A model generated the notes under the pieces. The model did no database searches. It saw only the letters and a program-made list of their open reading frames with translations, and was not told the DNA's origin. Both the position numbers and the translations under genes were made by a program. A stretch of DNA of 40,045 nucleotides from a virus (lineage: Duplodnaviria > Heunggongvirae > Uroviricota > Caudoviricetes), in IMG/VR virus record IMGVR_UViG_2778261504_000023, positions 1 to 40,045 of that record, one strand, 5' to 3'. Of this stretch, positions 14,387-33,565 are shown piece by piece (position 1 is the stretch's first letter; every line of letters begins with the position of its first letter).

Positions 14387-14463
14387 TGGCGTGGCATGCA
14401 GGATTCGAACCTGCGACCAACCGCTTAGAAGGCGGTTGCTCTGTCCAACTGAGCTAATGCCAC
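14387..14463 (-). tRNA. tRNA-Arg (anticodon UCU)
   Basis: Reverse complement folds as cloverleaf: acceptor GTGGCAT/ATGCCAC, D-arm GCTC/GAGC, anticodon stem ACCGC/GCGGT with loop CTTCTAA, T-arm GCAGG-TTCGAAT-CCTGC, discriminator G, encoded CCA. Confidence 0.85.
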
Positions 14464-28394: not shown

Positions 28395-30869
28395 ATGAGA
28401 CAGGAATGTATACAAGCGGTCCAGCAGGCGGCGCAGCGCACGTTAACGGCGCGAGAAATACAGAACATTGAAGACCGCATTTATCGAAATATGCGCTCCA
28501 TTGCTCGTGATGACCCGATGTCGTGGAGACAACTTTCCGAATCAGAGCGGCTATATCGTGCAGCACAATTGGCATCTGAAGGATTACAGCGAGAAGCGGC
28601 ATTAAAGAAACGTCGTGTGGCCCTCACTATAGCCGCACGTCAGAGATTGGATAAATTTATCAATAGCTATCAAGGGGCTGATGGGAAACTTGGCGCTCTT
28701 AACCGTACTATTGCTTTTAATGCAGACGGTAAATCGAATTTCCTCTCTGTTGAATCCAGAACAAAAGCCACCCGTGATTATGCATTGAGTCAATTGCAGG
28801 AGGCATTCGAAGCAGTTGATCCTCGCTTTTTTGGTCTGTTTGAAGATGAAGCGGGCGTACGTGACCTGGTATATGAAATGCGGGGGCAAAATACTGGCAA
28901 TGCTAAAGCAAGAAAAGGTGCTAAGGCGTGGAGAGAAGTTACAGAGCTGCTGCGCCGCCGGTTTAATGATGCTGGTGGGGACATTGGCTATCTCGAAAAC
29001 TGGGGGATCCCTCAACATCATTCTATGGAAAAGGTTGGGGCGGTATCAAAAGATAAATGGGTTAGCGATGTTATAGGTAAGCTGGATCGCAAATATTATA
29101 CCCTAGCCGATGGACAACTGATGAACGATGCCGAGTTGTCTGCATTTCTTGGAGAGGCTTATAACACGATCGCTACTGGTGGGCTGAATAAGCTTACTGA
29201 TACCGGAATGCGAATTTCCGGCGCACGTGCTAACCGTGGTAATGCATCACGACAGATACATTTCAAAGATGCAGATTCCTATCTGCAATATCAGCAACTT
29301 TATGGCGATCGCTCTCTATGGGAAATCATGGTCGGTCACCTTGAAGGTATCAGTAAAGATATTGCATTGGTGGAAACATATGGCCCAAACCCCGATCATG
29401 TTTTCCGCTCTCTTCTTGATCAGGTGAAGGCAGAAACGGCAACAGCTAACCCGAGTAAAACCGGTAAAGTCGAGCGGCTGGCGAACAACACAGAGAATCT
29501 GTACAACTTTATTTCCGGAAAGACACAGCCTGTAGCGAATCCGCACATCGCGCGCTGGTCTGACAATATCCGCAACTGGCTGGTTGCCAGCCGACTAGGA
29601 TCCGCGTTGCTGTCATCGTTCTCTGATCTTGGAACCATGTATCTGTCTGCGAAGGTGACCAACCTTCCAATGAACCAGTTATTCCGCAACCAGCTTGAAG
29701 CTATGGACCCAACGAACCGTACTGAGCTTGCGCGGGCGCGCCGCGCTGGTCTGGCGATGGAATCTCTACTTGGCAGTGTTAACCGCTGGGCGATGGATAA
29801 TATGGGGCCGTCTGTGTCTCGTTGGGCGGCGACGGCGGTAATGCGTGCCAGTGGGCTTACAGCATGGTCAGATGCGCACAAGCGCGCCTATGGCGTAACC
29901 ATGATGGGAAGCCTGGGAGAAGTAGTGTCACGGACACCAGACCTTCGTAGCCTCGATGACTCTGATTTTCGTATCCTGAAAAGCAAAGGGATTACTGACA
30001 CAGACTGGAGTGTATGGAAGCTGGCGCAACAGGAGGACTGGGGGAACGGTAATAATACGATGCTGACACCGGAAAGCATTATGCGTATCCCTGATTCAGC
30101 AGTTAAACATCTTGGTGAGCCTGAACGCGTGAAATTTGAGGCAATGCGTAAACTGCTCGGTGCCGTAACTGAAGAAGTTGATATGGCTGTTATTACACCG
30201 GGTGCACGTGAGAAACTGATAACCGGTTCTGGTATTCAGCGTGGAACATGGAAAGGTGAATTAACGAGAAGTGTTTTCCTGTTTAAATCGTTCCCTATCT
30301 CGGTGGTTATGCGTCACTGGTCACGCGCTATGGGTATGCCGTCGGCTGGTGGGCGTGCGGCATATATTGCGACGTTTATTGCCAGTACGACCATTCTTGG
30401 CGCTTTGTCGCAGCAACTTAACGACCTTGCGTCTGGTCGTAATCCTCGCGAGATGACAGGAGAAGATGCTGCTAAATTTTGGCTTGGTGCTCTACTGAAA
30501 GGTGGTGGTCTTGGCCTTTACGGTGACTTTTTATTGTCAGATCACACTAGGTACGGAAGCGGCGCGCTGGCGTCGATGCTTGGCCCGGTAGCTGGTCTGG
30601 TTGATGACGTAGTGAAGATTGCTCAGGGCATACCGTTAAATGCTGTGGAAGGGAAGAGTGAGCAGACTGGTGGTGATCTGGTGAAGCTGGGGAAAGGTTT
30701 GATGCCAGGTGCGAATCTCTGGTACTTAAAGGCGGCTCTCGATCATATGATCTTTAACCAGATGCAGGAGTATTTTTCACCAGGCTATTTGCGTAAAATG
30801 GAGCAACGTTCGAAGAAAGAGTTTAACCAGACATACTGGTGGCGACCTCAGGATGTCACTCCGCAATAA
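28395..30869 (+). CDS. Internal virion / ejection protein (824 aa, gp16-like position)
   Basis: SD GAGAGG; large protein at position of podoviral core proteins. Confidence 0.45.
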   Translation: MRQECIQAVQQAAQRTLTAREIQNIEDRIYRNMRSIARDDPMSWRQLSESERLYRAAQLASEGLQREAALKKRRVALTIAARQRLDKFINSYQGADGKLGALNRTIAFNADGKSNFLSVESRTKATRDYALSQLQEAFEAVDPRFFGLFEDEAGVRDLVYEMRGQNTGNAKARKGAKAWREVTELLRRRFNDAGGDIGYLENWGIPQHHSMEKVGAVSKDKWVSDVIGKLDRKYYTLADGQLMNDAELSAFLGEAYNTIATGGLNKLTDTGMRISGARANRGNASRQIHFKDADSYLQYQQLYGDRSLWEIMVGHLEGISKDIALVETYGPNPDHVFRSLLDQVKAETATANPSKTGKVERLANNTENLYNFISGKTQPVANPHIARWSDNIRNWLVASRLGSALLSSFSDLGTMYLSAKVTNLPMNQLFRNQLEAMDPTNRTELARARRAGLAMESLLGSVNRWAMDNMGPSVSRWAATAVMRASGLTAWSDAHKRAYGVTMMGSLGEVVSRTPDLRSLDDSDFRILKSKGITDTDWSVWKLAQQEDWGNGNNTMLTPESIMRIPDSAVKHLGEPERVKFEAMRKLLGAVTEEVDMAVITPGAREKLITGSGIQRGTWKGELTRSVFLFKSFPISVVMRHWSRAMGMPSAGGRAAYIATFIASTTILGALSQQLNDLASGRNPREMTGEDAAKFWLGALLKGGGLGLYGDFLLSDHTRYGSGALASMLGPVAGLVDDVVKIAQGIPLNAVEGKSEQTGGDLVKLGKGLMPGANLWYLKAALDHMIFNQMQEYFSPGYLRKMEQRSKKEFNQTYWWRPQDVTPQ

Positions 30870-30878
30870 GGAAGTGTT

Positions 30879-31052
30879 GTGTTTTTAATTATTTTGAGTG
30901 TGATAATTTCTGGTGGGTTGTTATTTATTGACCGCTACAAATATTTTCTTAACCCTCAGACTCAAGCTATTTGCTGGTTCATCTTTGTTGTGCAGGGAAT
31001 AGTTCTTGTTGCAAGCCTTATTGAGGGGAGGCCTCTGATTTTTACTGGGTAA
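30879..31052 (+). CDS. Hypothetical small membrane protein (57 aa)
   Basis: Not in ORF track; GTG 30879 with SD AAGGAAG; VFLIILSVIISGGLLFIDRYKYFLNPQTQAICWFIFVVQGIVLVASLIEGRPLIFTG, two hydrophobic segments. Confidence 0.3.
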   Translation: MFLIILSVIISGGLLFIDRYKYFLNPQTQAICWFIFVVQGIVLVASLIEGRPLIFTG

Positions 31053-31064
31053 ATAGGTGACTAC

Positions 31065-31361
31065 ATGCAAGCTATAGGATTCATTGTTTATATCGTCGTT
31101 GGTCTTTTTCAGTTGGCAGCAATTATGGCTGGGCTTGAATCATGGTGGGGATTGCACTGGATAATTGCAGCCCCCATTGCTTTCATCGTGAGCTATATTC
31201 CATTTGTTGGAGCGATTGTTGGTATGGTTGGCGCTGTGGATGTATGGCGGTGGGAGTGGTGGCAGGCTGGCCTTCTCTTCTTTGGTGGGATCATATTTGC
31301 TATTGTCTGCGGTGGAATGTCATCATTTTTCGAATGGCTATCATTCAGAAAAAGAGCGTGA
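31065..31361 (+). CDS. Hypothetical membrane protein (98 aa, about 3 TM segments)
   Basis: Highly hydrophobic; SD AGGTGA; stop overlaps GTGACATGTCAC palindrome. Confidence 0.5.
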   Translation: MQAIGFIVYIVVGLFQLAAIMAGLESWWGLHWIIAAPIAFIVSYIPFVGAIVGMVGAVDVWRWEWWQAGLLFFGGIIFAIVCGGMSSFFEWLSFRKRA

Positions 31362-31369
31362 CATGTCAC
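31358..31369. repeat. 12-bp perfect palindrome GTGACATGTCAC (copy 3 of 3)
   Basis: Overlaps stop codon of 31065..31361 and directly precedes terminator hairpin. Confidence 0.8.
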
Positions 31370-31395
31370 AGGCCGCTTTCGCGGCCTTGTTTTTA
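31370..31395 (+). terminator. Rho-independent terminator (plus strand)
   Basis: AGGCCGC-tttc-GCGGCCT followed by TGTTTTT. Confidence 0.7.
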
Positions 31396-31434
31396 ACGAA
31401 TGCCACCGCCGCCCGGGCGGGAATCCGCAGACAC

Positions 31435-31456
31435 AAAAAAGCCCGCGGCGCGGGCT
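31435..31456 (-). terminator. Rho-independent terminator (minus strand) after moron gene
   Basis: On plus strand AAAAAA then GCCCGCG-gc-GCGGGC; U-run on minus. Confidence 0.65.
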
Positions 31457-31460
31457 TCTA

Positions 31461-32093
31461 TTAATGCAGTTTATCTTTGCTTATAACCAGTAGTCTGTGG
31501 GTATGCACATCTTTATCACTGCCCCAACAGAAATCAGCCCACTGGCTATAGAAATCATCCCATGATGTCATGAAGCTAAGAGGTCTATCTTCTTCAGAGC
31601 CATCTGAAACGTATACATTATATCCCGGGGTGTTTATAGCCCAAGAAATCATTCTTTCCCAGAATCTTCTCCCATCGATTGTTTGTTGCTCATCAGATAC
31701 AACGATCGCATATTGCTCTAGGAAGAACTGAAAAAAAATCTGAGGCAAACCATGAACAGCACGGTCATGAATAACATTAGGCGTACGCCATACCATGATC
31801 TGCGTACATGTTCTTTTGGCTTCGACGATATCTTCCCGAAAGATTAACTTAACCGCATACACCGTTTCTGGAGTATCGCTGGTAGTAATCATTCTGTAAT
31901 GATCGCCATTACAAGATTTTACAAGGCGATAACCATAAGGTGTTGTGAATCCCGGAAGAACGAAATCAACCACACCTTTCGCTAAGTAGCTTTCGGTGTG
32001 ACTAGTGTTCTTCTCAGACATGTTCAGTTTTCTATCGAAATCTGCTTCTGGGATAATGTATGGCATCGCTTTTCTTGTTGTATTTGTTCTCAT
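31461..32093 (-). CDS. Hypothetical protein (210 aa), AT-rich moron of unknown function
   Basis: Strong SD GGGAGG before ATG 32093; visibly AT-rich compared with flanking structural genes; own upstream palindrome and downstream terminator. Confidence 0.55.
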   Translation of the reverse strand: MRTNTTRKAMPYIIPEADFDRKLNMSEKNTSHTESYLAKGVVDFVLPGFTTPYGYRLVKSCNGDHYRMITTSDTPETVYAVKLIFREDIVEAKRTCTQIMVWRTPNVIHDRAVHGLPQIFFQFFLEQYAIVVSDEQQTIDGRRFWERMISWAINTPGYNVYVSDGSEEDRPLSFMTSWDDFYSQWADFCWGSDKDVHTHRLLVISKDKLH

Positions 32094-32151
32094 TTCGTCC
32101 TCCCATGTTTGGCTACAGGACGCGTTTTGAAGGGAAGATTAAAAATGCTTT

Positions 32152-32166
32152 CTTACCCTTGAGGTA
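32152..32166. promoter_or_regulatory. Palindrome TTACCCTTGAGGTAA upstream of moron gene
   Basis: Perfect TTACC-N5-GGTAA. Confidence 0.55.
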
Positions 32167-32232
32167 ATAGTACGCTATTCACCTGCAATCTGTACAGAAT
32201 TATTTAAAGGCACATCCCTGTGCCGCCGCCCG

Positions 32233-32919
32233 TCAGAAGAACCCTGCCTTGTCGTTGATGTATTCCGCGTGAGTCTGGATATCACGCAGGCATTTGCTCA
32301 CACCGACGATGTAGCAGAACATGGTGGTCAGCTCCGCCGCCGCGCCCGATACATCGTGCCCGTCGTCCTGCAACTGGTTCAGCAGATTCATCAGCAGTGA
32401 GTTCTCCGTCAGGCCGAGAACACCAGACGGGGAATGAATCAGGCTGCGGTAGCCGGGCTTCAGCGGGGCGCTGTAGGTTTTGTTCTCTACCTTCATTGCC
32501 TGCATCACTGCTGATGCTGTGGCGCTGGCTACCTGGTCGGCAACCATCTTTATGCGTTCTTCCTGCGGGAGCGAGTTTTTAATGTAACTTCCGGTGCGGC
32601 GGATCTGAGAAACAACCTCACCTGTAACCCATTTACGAAAGCGGTAGGGGATAGTGCCTGGTGTCACTGCGTCGCGGCAGCGGAGGATCAGTGTGTAGAG
32701 GCCTGACTCGTTGATAATATTGGTTTCGCCTTGACGGCCTAAGTTAAATTTAGCCCTTTCATCATCATCAAGAGATTTTATTGACATAGTGGGGTTTGTC
32801 AGTTGAAGAGCTTTAATAACGTCTTTGGCAACAAACCAAGGATTTCCATCAATAACAATGGCTCGAATGGTTGCTTCTGATTCAAAATGAAAAACAGATG
32901 GGGTTACGTTAGCAGTCAT
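32233..32919 (-). CDS. Bro-N (KilA-N/Ant N-terminal) domain protein, antirepressor-like
   Basis: About 228 aa from ATG 32919 (SD AAGGTGA); FHFESEATIRAIVIDGNPWFVAKDV...NESGLYTLILRCRDA...FRKWVTGEV matches Bro-N consensus; C-terminal domain paralogous to 33232..33489. Confidence 0.7.
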   Translation of the reverse strand: MTANVTPSVFHFESEATIRAIVIDGNPWFVAKDVIKALQLTNPTMSIKSLDDDERAKFNLGRQGETNIINESGLYTLILRCRDAVTPGTIPYRFRKWVTGEVVSQIRRTGSYIKNSLPQEERIKMVADQVASATASAVMQAMKVENKTYSAPLKPGYRSLIHSPSGVLGLTENSLLMNLLNQLQDDGHDVSGAAAELTTMFCYIVGVSKCLRDIQTHAEYINDKAGFF

Positions 32920-33185
32920 AGTGATCACCTTTGTAGTTAGGTTAATCACCACTACCGACGCCAATCGGTTGGTGGTGAACTGTGCAGGGTTGGCGTAACC
33001 GGCTACAAAGGACCCGGCGCACCTTTCGGTGCCCCCACACAGCCCACCATAGAATAGGTGCGCTTTACACATAAAAAAACCGCTTATGCGGCATATGTGC
33101 CTCTGTAGTAACCCGGGACGCCAATCCCGGCACTGGATTTTGCCAGTGCCCGATTACTATGGCACAAGAGGAGTGCGATGTAAAT

Positions 33186-33200
33186 TTACCGCAAAGGTAA
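33186..33200. promoter_or_regulatory. Palindrome TTACCGCAAAGGTAA in leader upstream of bro-N gene
   Basis: Perfect TTACC-N5-GGTAA. Confidence 0.55.
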
Positions 33201-33231
33201 ATATAAGCACTCCTCTTGGTGATTTCAAATC

Positions 33232-33489
33232 TTATCTGGTTTGTTTTCGTAATTGTTCGGCACAATAGTCGAGATGTGTTTGCAGATCCTGCATAGACAT
33301 CTGTGAGCTGGTGACGTAGTTAATCAGTGCAGTCAGTTCGGCAAGTGGGCCATCGACATTAAATCCATCCTTATCGAGATCCCGGAGTAATTTCATCAAG
33401 TGCGATCCCTCCACTAGTGATCTGACGCCTCCCGGCGTGTGAATCCTTTCGGTAAATCCGTCTTCCAGTGGATAGTGATACTGCTGCAT
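33232..33489 (-). CDS. Small antirepressor-like protein (85 aa), paralogue of C-terminal domain of the Bro-N protein, LexA-box controlled
   Basis: ATG 33489 with SD GGAG; IHTPGGVRSLVEGSHLMKLLRDLDKDGFNVDGPLAELT...DLQTH aligns with IHSPSGVLGLTENSLLMNLLNQLQDDGHDVSGAAAELT...DIQTH of 32233..32919; perfect LexA box 22 bp upstream. Confidence 0.55.
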   Translation of the reverse strand: MQQYHYPLEDGFTERIHTPGGVRSLVEGSHLMKLLRDLDKDGFNVDGPLAELTALINYVTSSQMSMQDLQTHLDYCAEQLRKQTR

Positions 33490-33510
33490 CTTATCTTCTC
33501 CATGCAATAA

Positions 33511-33526
33511 CTGTATATTTATACAG
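33511..33526. promoter_or_regulatory. LexA box (SOS box)
   Basis: AACTGTATATTTATACAGTA: CTGT-N8-ACAG with AT-rich spacer, matching enterobacterial consensus TACTGTATATATATACAGTA; overlaps candidate -10 TATAAA on minus strand. Confidence 0.7.
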
Positions 33527-33565
33527 TAGCAAATAATTTGTTTGCTATCCAGCACGTTTTGCAAA

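Follow-up and report, generated by a model that had tools for sequence, protein, structure and literature searches.

An immI-type region with two cargo slots in a Uetakevirus prophage, and a cargo protein with a predicted GNAT-like fold

Layout of the region, its antirepressor core and two cargo slots

The DNA considered here is the IMG/VR virus record IMGVR_UViG_2778261504_000023 (positions 1 to 40,045; the whole stretch of 40,045 nucleotides is called the window), and the element in question is a 2.8 kb interruption of its virion gene block (30870..33684), with particular attention to a gene for a protein of 210 amino acids (aa) carried within it. The first 25 kb of the window were 97-98% identical to the Uetakevirus phages phiv142-3, PAS61 and ZX5 over 85-90% of length, phage phiV10 has the same gene layout, and the interruption region aligned piecewise to phiV10 and its relatives. 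By these alignments the window is a phiV10/epsilon15-like (Uetakevirus) prophage with Escherichia coli as its host. The features of the interruption and of its two borders are listed below.

28395..30869, + strand: gp17-like last internal virion (ejection-type) gene, 824 aa, the left border; full-length match to phrog_684 ('virion structural protein', E = 0) and homologue of phiV10p20.
30879..31052, + strand: 57-aa open reading frame (ORF) with two hydrophobic helices and a GTG start 9 nt past the gp17 stop, coding status uncertain; ORF list, hydropathy and a G+C content of 37.4%.
31065..31361, + strand: gene for a 98-aa protein with three hydrophobic helices; phrog_3075, E = 2e-54.
31370..31397, + strand: intrinsic terminator closing the rightward transcript of the virion genes and slot A; stem at 31370-31387 (AGGCCGCTTTCGCGGCCT, 7 pairs, 6 of them GC), then TGTTTTT.
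31430..31459, − strand: intrinsic terminator closing the leftward transcript, right behind the stop codon of the 210-aa gene; stem at 31459-31437, 10 pairs, then TTTTTTG.
31461..32093, − strand: slot B cargo, gene for a 210-aa cytoplasmic protein of a probable divergent GNAT-fold family (PHROG 1349); PHROG match and predicted structure.
32094..32150, − strand: cargo-specific 5′ untranslated region; GGAGG, and CUCC/GUCC-type stretches upstream of it that can pair with it; slot variants diverge here when aligned.
32151..32232, − strand: conserved junction block past the antirepressor stop; common to prophages with different cargo in an alignment of nine loci.
32233..32919, − strand: antirepressor gene with a Bro-N domain, 228 aa, predicted start MTANVTP at 32919; Pfam Bro-N E = 1e-18, PHROG anti-repressor Ant families down to E = 1e-53.
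32968..33054, − strand: C4 antisense RNA, 48 nt upstream of the Bro-N start; Rfam RF01695, full model, 79.5 bits against a gathering cutoff of 45.
33073..33162, − strand: isrK-like leader element with its own terminator (33092-33079), overlapping putative C4 target sites a1/b1; RF01394 match at 33149..33073, 74.7 bits against a gathering cutoff of 50.
33200..33228, − strand: promoter-like site for the immI transcript, TTGAAA-17 nt-TATATT; 10/12 consensus matches, the best in the region.
33232..33489, − strand: gp19-like gene, 85 aa; homologue of phiV10p24 and epsilon15p19.
33685..36312, + strand: tailspike gene, 875 aa, the right border; Pfam Tail_spike_N and Beta_helix, PHROG tail fibre/tail spike families.

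An earlier note on this DNA had described the interruption as an AT-rich moron island of about 2.8 kb between the internal virion protein genes and the tail fibre gene. Its size and its location between the internal (ejection-type) protein genes and a tail gene were confirmed, the right-hand neighbour being a tailspike by Pfam and PHROG, and the three ORFs that the note had named at 30879..31052 (+, 57 aa, GTG start), 31065..31361 (+, 98 aa) and 31461..32093 (−, 210 aa) were all present. Hydropathy windows above 1.6 marked two hydrophobic stretches in the 57-aa, three in the 98-aa and none in the 210-aa protein, in agreement with the description of the first two as small membrane proteins. The bidirectional terminators placed between the 98-aa and 210-aa genes were also found (31370-31387 on the + strand, 31459-31437 on the − strand), the latter containing a 9-nt perfect inverted repeat at 31439-31457, and the region as a whole held 10 terminator-like sites against 2.8 ± 1.3 in shuffled sequence. 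The claim that the 210-aa gene is poorer in G+C than its neighbours was likewise upheld, with 40.9% (37.9% at third codon positions) against 49.3% for the window and 49.5% for the gp17-like gene; the 57-aa ORF stood at 37.4%, the 98-aa gene at 45.8%, and the tailspike region was likewise low at 45.2%. The moron-island reading itself stood in part: the 210-aa gene and those for the membrane proteins belong to a variable accessory cargo, whereas the core is a Bro-N/C4/isrK control module, so that the largest part of the 'island' is now read as an antirepressor switch with an antisense RNA.

To judge by its Rfam, Pfam and PHROG matches, the core (32233..33230, − strand) is a conserved P1-type immI lysis-lysogeny control module, ordinary for this phage group; it was taken as a conserved control module rather than foreign cargo because it has the immI layout of P1/P7 and a position matching that of sieA-mnt-arc-sar-ant in P22. 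The program-listed ORF of 279 aa (32233..33072) crosses the C4 RNA and overstates the antirepressor gene. Antirepressor homologues in relatives, annotated Ant, AntA/AntB or Bro-N, are 194-231 aa long, and the predicted start is MTANVTP at 32919, which is accompanied by a ribosome-binding site and gives a protein of 228 aa consistent with these lengths. A further match, to RF03163 (C4 target sites a1/b1) at 33110..33162, scored 44.1 bits, under its gathering cutoff of 46.7, and overlaps the isrK match. A leftward transcript would begin near 33200 and pass through the isrK-like leader and the C4 RNA into the Bro-N antirepressor gene, and the C4 RNA would silence the antirepressor in the lysogen, by analogy with P1 immI, where C4 RNA controls ant (PMC8201110).

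As in P1/P7 immI (c4, icd, ant), a C4-family RNA lies upstream of a same-strand antirepressor, together with an upstream leader element that may include the C4 target sites, and as in P1 a further gene stands directly behind ant, namely kilA in P1 and the 210-aa gene here. The present region differs in its 228-aa Bro-N antirepressor, in its setting within a podovirus virion gene block rather than a plasmid prophage, and in its leader, which, unlike P1/P7 immI, also matches the isrK family of Salmonella Gifsy-1; no icd-like ORF turned up, no search aimed at icd having been made. In P22, sieA, mnt, arc, sar and ant lie between gene 16 and gene 9. The window shares with this arrangement the location, with the last ejection-protein gene on one side and the tailspike on the other, an antisense-RNA-controlled antirepressor, and membrane-protein genes straight after the ejection-protein gene, as sieA is; it differs in lacking Arc/Mnt repressors and in having an RNA regulator of the C4 type instead of sar.

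Two cargo slots flank the immI core, slot A behind the gp17-like gene and slot B behind the antirepressor, and both hold different genes in phiV10, phiv142-3, TL-2011b, TW10722, APEC O1, S87, 729_021014 and IAI39. At slot A, phiV10 and strain 729_021014 have a 46-aa protein with two helices; TW10722 and phiv142-3 share part of the 57-aa/98-aa pair of the window; APEC O1 and IAI39 encode a protein of 126 aa there, and S87 one of 186 aa. The 46-aa two-helix membrane gene of phiV10, phiV10p21, is the positional analogue of the 57-aa ORF, which RefSeq leaves unannotated in the near-identical prophage of strain TW10722 and which had no family match in Pfam, PHROG, PADLOC or NCBIfam. The 98-aa protein (phrog_3075) occurs in seven phage records, always at slot A only, and had a holin-family match below threshold (E = 0.027); phiV10 has neither the 98-aa nor the 210-aa gene. 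Homology of the slot A proteins to SieA was rejected, BLASTP of the 98-aa protein against P22 SieA giving E = 2 and the 57-aa protein likewise showing no similarity.

Slot B holds one of several unrelated cassettes between a conserved junction block of ~80 nt and the terminator. The 210-aa gene occupies it in TW10722 and APEC O1, a DUF4760 protein in S87, a pair of genes for 146 and 55 aa in 729_021014, a YafO-like toxin with a 59-aa gene in TL-2011b, and small ORFs in phiv142-3. IAI39 has a 211-aa protein there (E = 2e-17), and because this homologue is only 30% identical to the 210-aa protein, either the slot was filled by the 210-aa family at least twice or the family diverged in place. Across the alignment of nine loci the junction block measures ~80-95 nt and consists of a hairpin GGCACAGGGATGTGCC, then TTTAAATAATT, then, in most loci, TTGCAG-17 nt-TACTAT, after which the cassettes diverge. 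The window has the hairpin GGCACAGGGATGTGCC at 32224-32209 with a broken U-tract, and a 7-nt spacer deletion that leaves TGTACA-18 nt-TACTAT (32196-32167), an 8/12 promoter-like match. With an 841-nt query, parts of it (mostly the junction block and the terminator) matched 415 of 5426 complete E. coli genomes, while the 210-aa gene and its flanks were present in 93 of the 5426, APEC O1 and IHE3034 included; the − strand terminator accompanies the gene in E. coli genomes, the matches beginning at query position 33. The conserved flanks thus offer a handle for cataloguing other slot B contents.

Conserved flanks, alternative cassettes, an own terminator, atypical composition and a strand opposite to the virion genes are features shared with moron hotspots such as the P2/P4 defence hotspots and lambda bor/lom. 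Slot B differs from these in that the cassettes seen match no known defence system and in being tied to the end of the antirepressor operon. Both parts of the region are of known kinds, the module a P1-/P22-style immI and the slot a typical moron hotspot.

Two observations concern the other end of the module. The gp19-like 85-aa protein and the C terminus of the antirepressor (32233..32480, − strand) share a domain, phrog_450 and phrog_15539 each matching both, and the gp19-like protein may be a stand-alone copy of the antirepressor C-terminal domain. Some relatives (L021:5890-6618 and L024:4870-5598) have an additional + strand gene for 242 aa, placed between the leader of the antirepressor and the gp19-like gene; it had a weak Stc1-domain match only and would make a third variable place in the module.

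Family, predicted fold and contexts of the 210-aa protein

The 210-aa protein matched PHROG 1349 end-to-end (E = 3e-113) and PHROG 3307 weakly, both of them annotated 'unknown function', and had no match in Pfam or NCBIfam (E <= 0.1), in PADLOC or among PDB sequences. A word-indexed search returned 63 clusters, all from Enterobacterales and labelled 'hypothetical' or 'phage protein', and at least 1000 E. coli contigs carried exact or near-exact copies. When 1.84 billion representatives were searched with a profile, 886 relatives came up at E <= 1e-3, nearly all of ~200 aa. The close subfamily has 23 invariant columns, and 140 diverse members are near-invariant only at Y79, W102, D134, F144, W145 and I204, D134 being the sole polar position. 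Among isolated phages the family was found in 3 of 50,697 records. No paper naming WP_001260052 or phrog_1349 was found in the literature, nor anything relevant on prophage GNAT defence.

Structure prediction, a check that the earlier note had proposed, pointed to a GNAT-like fold. The AlphaFold2 model, computed from a 38-sequence alignment (predicted local distance difference test score 80.5, predicted template modelling score 0.77), is a mixed alpha/beta fold with the GNAT order b1-a1-a2-b2-b3-b4-a3-b5-a4-b6. Foldseek searches with this model gave only weak GNAT matches in the PDB (E >= 0.03); among viral models they gave annotated acyl-CoA N-acyltransferases at E = 3.6e-4 to 1e-2 and uncharacterised phage proteins, one of them from Atu_ph07 at E = 3e-9. 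A bridge at the sequence level was provided by a 203-aa relative encoded near a distant member of the family (L095:2969-3580), which aligned to the family profile in hhalign (81%, E = 1.2e-5) and matched Pfam Acetyltransf_1 at a canonical motif A, R-E-G-G-L-A (E = 1.1e-3, 19.6 bits, cutoff 20.7). The corresponding stretch in the 210-aa protein reads R110-A-V-H-G114-L-P116 and is followed by a helix at 116-127, with a family consensus of G-x-A-x3-F-F-x2-L-L. In hhalign the RimI segment QGLGRALLEHL was laid over HGLPQIFFQFFLEQ, without significance. The RimI homologues that a search returned were all RimI proteins of 80% identity or more, from which no useful GNAT profile could be built.

The 210-aa protein has a predicted GNAT-like fold and is probably a very divergent GNAT, GNAT homology being indicated weakly by the sequences themselves. 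It resembles the superfamily in predicted fold and strand/helix order, in a glycine-containing loop ahead of the helix that would contact the CoA pyrophosphate, in its length of ~200 aa and in having a related paralogue with a canonical R-x-x-G-x-A motif, and differs in a longer beta4-alpha3 loop, an extra C-terminal helix and F/W in place of the catalytic Tyr. The family is thus probably an unnamed divergent branch of a known superfamily, with hundreds of representatives and without a Pfam model, a name or a paper. A relationship to the Mom-type GNAT of phage Mu was tried and discarded (in hhalign the family profile and Mu Mom aligned with a probability of 0.1%). Similarity to P22 SieA was no better, BLASTP giving E = 68, and only the genomic position is analogous. 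A virion role for the gene was also rejected, in view of the 'unknown function' label of PHROG 1349 and 3307, the GNAT-like fold and the lone chromosomal copies described below; homology to a virion structural component, which the earlier note had named as the finding that would overturn its reading, was searched for and none was found.

Genes of the family were found in several phage backgrounds. A second type of E. coli prophage, with T7_gp14-like internal proteins, has the order Bro-N, 210-aa family gene, 53-aa gene and convergent AntA. Siphovirus prophages of Serratia and Leclercia carry the gene between a DUF6246 gene and the tape-measure gene, where a convergent P22-type ant and an adjoining Arc/Mnt-like gene often accompany it. 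Phage LLS has it behind the spanin genes at the genome end, and P1-like elements of Citrobacter have it on the opposite strand between baseplate genes and an SLT gene. Searching species-representative genomes with the close-subfamily alignment gave 69 family loci, ~50 of them in gene orders common to at least two species. In Enterobacter, Leclercia, Lelliottia, Silvania and Huaxiibacter the gene adjoins nfsB and ramR-romA-ramA; it lies between thiD and pagP in Proteus, between bamC and purC in Providencia, between cellobiose phosphotransferase system genes and hda in Photorhabdus, between ppc and metF in Xenorhabdus, and in Morganella its neighbour is a two-partner-secretion gene. These contexts have no partner gene in common, and the family gene is therefore taken to act alone. 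It is a stand-alone unit kept both by phages (podovirus, siphovirus, lambdoid and P1-like) and by chromosomes, as single-gene islets fixed within several genera.

Single relatives are fused to an MqsA zinc ribbon (MqsA-N), to a ParE-like toxin domain or to an SRA_ScoMcrA modified-DNA reader. In the last case, on a metagenomic contig (L096:4823-6080), a Phd/YefM antitoxin gene overlaps the start of the fusion gene, a layout reminiscent of a toxin-antitoxin pair equipped with a sensor of DNA modification. Other distant members were found among small genes arrayed on one strand, in the company of an Arc-like gene, DprA and a standard GNAT, or else near PAAR genes. In Acerihabitans sp. TG2 (L027, ~1-6.6 kb of the locus) two family members were seen a few genes apart.

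Expression and possible role of the 210-aa gene

A GGAGG (32103-32099) stands 5 nt ahead of the ATG of the 210-aa gene, and the strong Shine-Dalgarno sequence reported by the earlier note is real. Two other statements about this end of the gene did not hold. The gene lies on the antirepressor strand, 139 nt downstream, with a weak hairpin and the 8/12 promoter-like match in between, and a consensus scan from the antirepressor to the gene called neither a promoter nor a terminator, which leaves the description of the gene as independently transcribed unsupported. The upstream palindrome proved to be only a weak, 77% overlapping repeat of 13 nt at 32113-32132; the 151-nt RNA upstream of the gene folded no better than shuffles (z = -0.86), and neither result supports the palindrome as an operator. 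In 27 non-identical homologue loci from unrelated contexts (e.g. L007:7951-8003 and L041:5921-5973), a CUCC/GUCC-type stretch was found 8-14 nt upstream of the GGAGG, with which it pairs in most minimum-energy folds. These predicted pairings suggest translational masking of the ribosome-binding site, and because the site can pair with the upstream complementary stretch the protein is probably made at a low level.

The reading that we put forward for the whole region, and to which we give slightly more credence than doubt, is that of the immI region of a Uetakevirus prophage with two cargo slots, in which a 210-aa acyltransferase-like gene protects its carrier cell. The degenerate motif A of the 210-aa protein (R110-x3-G114-L-P116, where helix 116-127 begins) would be its acyl-CoA binding site, and the protein would pass the acyl group on to a target. 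The gene most likely benefits the carrier cell against other phages or toxic agents, by exclusion, defence or resistance. Such a protective role was favoured because chromosomes retain the gene without the surrounding phage, because at least five phage architectures have acquired it in separate insertions, often in an orientation opposed to local transcription, because slot B elsewhere holds toxin-type cargo, and because relatives are fused or adjacent to toxin-antitoxin domains. The useful lead is seen in slot B and the 210-aa family. Kept as a stand-alone unit by both phages and bacteria, the gene is a good candidate for some function in phage-host conflict or resistance that is simple and open to testing.

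A narrower version, which we regard as unlikely, is that the gene encodes a new one-gene conflict effector, namely an acyltransferase free of an antitoxin that is kept nearly silent by its masked ribosome-binding site and that, once unmasked, would modify a nucleic acid or translation component and so stop the infecting phage. Charged tRNA or phage DNA was considered as its candidate target because a relative is fused to the SRA modified-DNA reader. Were it true, the 210-aa proteins would make up a defence family widespread in Enterobacterales, as yet absent from the catalogues and moving between phages and chromosomes.

A number of results weigh against a protective acyltransferase. The earlier note had named lysogenic conversion, superinfection exclusion and anti-phage defence as candidate functions, and these must stand as proposals: no PADLOC families (E <= 0.1) were matched by the 210-aa, 57-aa, 98-aa, Bro-N or gp19-like proteins, nor by ten alternative cargo proteins of the slots, and the species-representative loci of the family lie in housekeeping or prophage contexts and not in defence islands. 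Fixation within genera is, moreover, unusual for defence genes. On the side of the fold, motif A is degenerate in the protein of the window, F144-W145 stand at the position in helix a4 where GNAT toxins have their catalytic Tyr, none of 140 family members matched any Pfam acetyltransferase model, the family profile found nothing among PDB entries at E <= 10, and its hhalign comparison with E. coli RimI was not significant. On the side of expression, read-through from the antirepressor may be the only source of transcripts of the gene. The ribosome-binding site paired with a probability of 0.75, against 0.63 with the upstream part shuffled (Wilcoxon p = 0.008, on related sequences), which is modest support for masking, and RNAalifold found no consensus pairs in the homologue 5′ regions, a result attributed to pairing registers that differ among homologues. 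The fusions and the contexts of distant members, lastly, come from single metagenomic contigs and serve as hints only.

The explanation ranked as the main rival of a protective role has a limited but appreciable chance of being correct. It holds that the 210-aa gene is an early gene serving the phage itself, in counter-defence or host takeover, which would share a transcript with the antirepressor once C4 control is evaded at infection or induction and whose product would acylate a host immune or housekeeping protein. AcrVA5, a GNAT anti-CRISPR, provides a precedent. The arrangement in the window fits it well, since the gene is on the same strand as the antirepressor with only a 5-bp hairpin with a broken U-tract in the 139 nt between them; the Bro-N-then-gene order recurs in the other E. 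coli prophage type, structural relatives occur in the jumbo lytic phages Atu_ph07 and BCSR5, distant members lie in same-strand small-gene arrays of the kind typical of early/leading regions, and P1 kilA, the next gene after ant, is a highly expressed lytic gene (PMC8201110). The chromosomal copies, however, do not fit: lone, phage-free copies are conserved across species in genera of the Enterobacter group and in Proteus, Morganella, Providencia, Photorhabdus and Xenorhabdus, and because of them a benefit to the phage only cannot explain the family. The gene is also convergent with ant in the Serratia prophages, is far from any antirepressor in the P1-like elements and LLS, and is rare in isolated phages.

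Quite unlikely, in our judgement, is a GNAT-toxin-like effector without a protein antitoxin, one that would for instance acetylate charged tRNA, would be held back by masked translation and freed by infection, and would form a one-gene abortive-infection or addiction module. Addiction would account for the stable single-gene islets, and the complementary stretches upstream of the ribosome-binding site in 27 loci, the relatives fused to the ParE-like toxin domain and the MqsA zinc ribbon, the SRA-fused relative that takes the toxin's place after a Phd/YefM antitoxin gene and the YafO-like toxin cassette in slot B of TL-2011b are all in its favour. The family likewise shares with the GNAT toxins TacT, AtaT, KacT and ItaT the fold, a location on mobile elements and, in some relatives, ties to toxin-antitoxin domains. 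It is nevertheless structurally no closer to them than to other GNATs, and F/W replace the Tyr that GNAT toxins require. No antitoxin ORF or repeat RNA lies alongside the gene, which is directly flanked by terminators: between it and the terminator or the antirepressor there is no antitoxin gene of the ribbon-helix-helix/DUF1778 type, only overlapping out-of-frame ORFs, and the other family contexts hold no conserved neighbour that could be an antitoxin partner. Further difficulties are the strong ribosome-binding site and the fact that at least 1000 E. coli contigs carry intact copies without any trace of a partner. The least probable of these explanations is a GNAT-shaped protein without catalysis, with a binding or regulatory role such as that of an accessory antirepressor, or else a neutral passenger gene. 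The degenerate motif A, the lack of a conserved catalytic Tyr or Glu and the aromatic or aliphatic nature of five of the six near-invariant positions would suit it, as would the frequent adjacency of the family gene to antirepressor genes; strong full-length conservation in 63 clusters, the 23 invariant columns of the close subfamily, the 886 representatives and chromosomal retention point instead to a selected activity, and many contexts are without any antirepressor.

Some features elsewhere in the window were also recorded. Directly behind the tailspike lies a gene for a GtrA-family membrane protein (36449..36844, − strand; Pfam E = 4.5e-13), in the stretch of lowest G+C content (~40%); phiV10 has an O-acetyltransferase at this position, and no gtrB- or gtrC-like gene was seen beside the GtrA gene. 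A tRNA gene lies inside the phage genome at 14390..14463 (− strand; Rfam, 73.3 bits). Behind the lysis genes, at the end of the window (38975..40045, − strand), are genes for a DUF5384 protein of 179 aa and for a glycine-zipper lipoprotein with a sub-threshold TraT-like match, and these two genes may be either further cargo or host flank.

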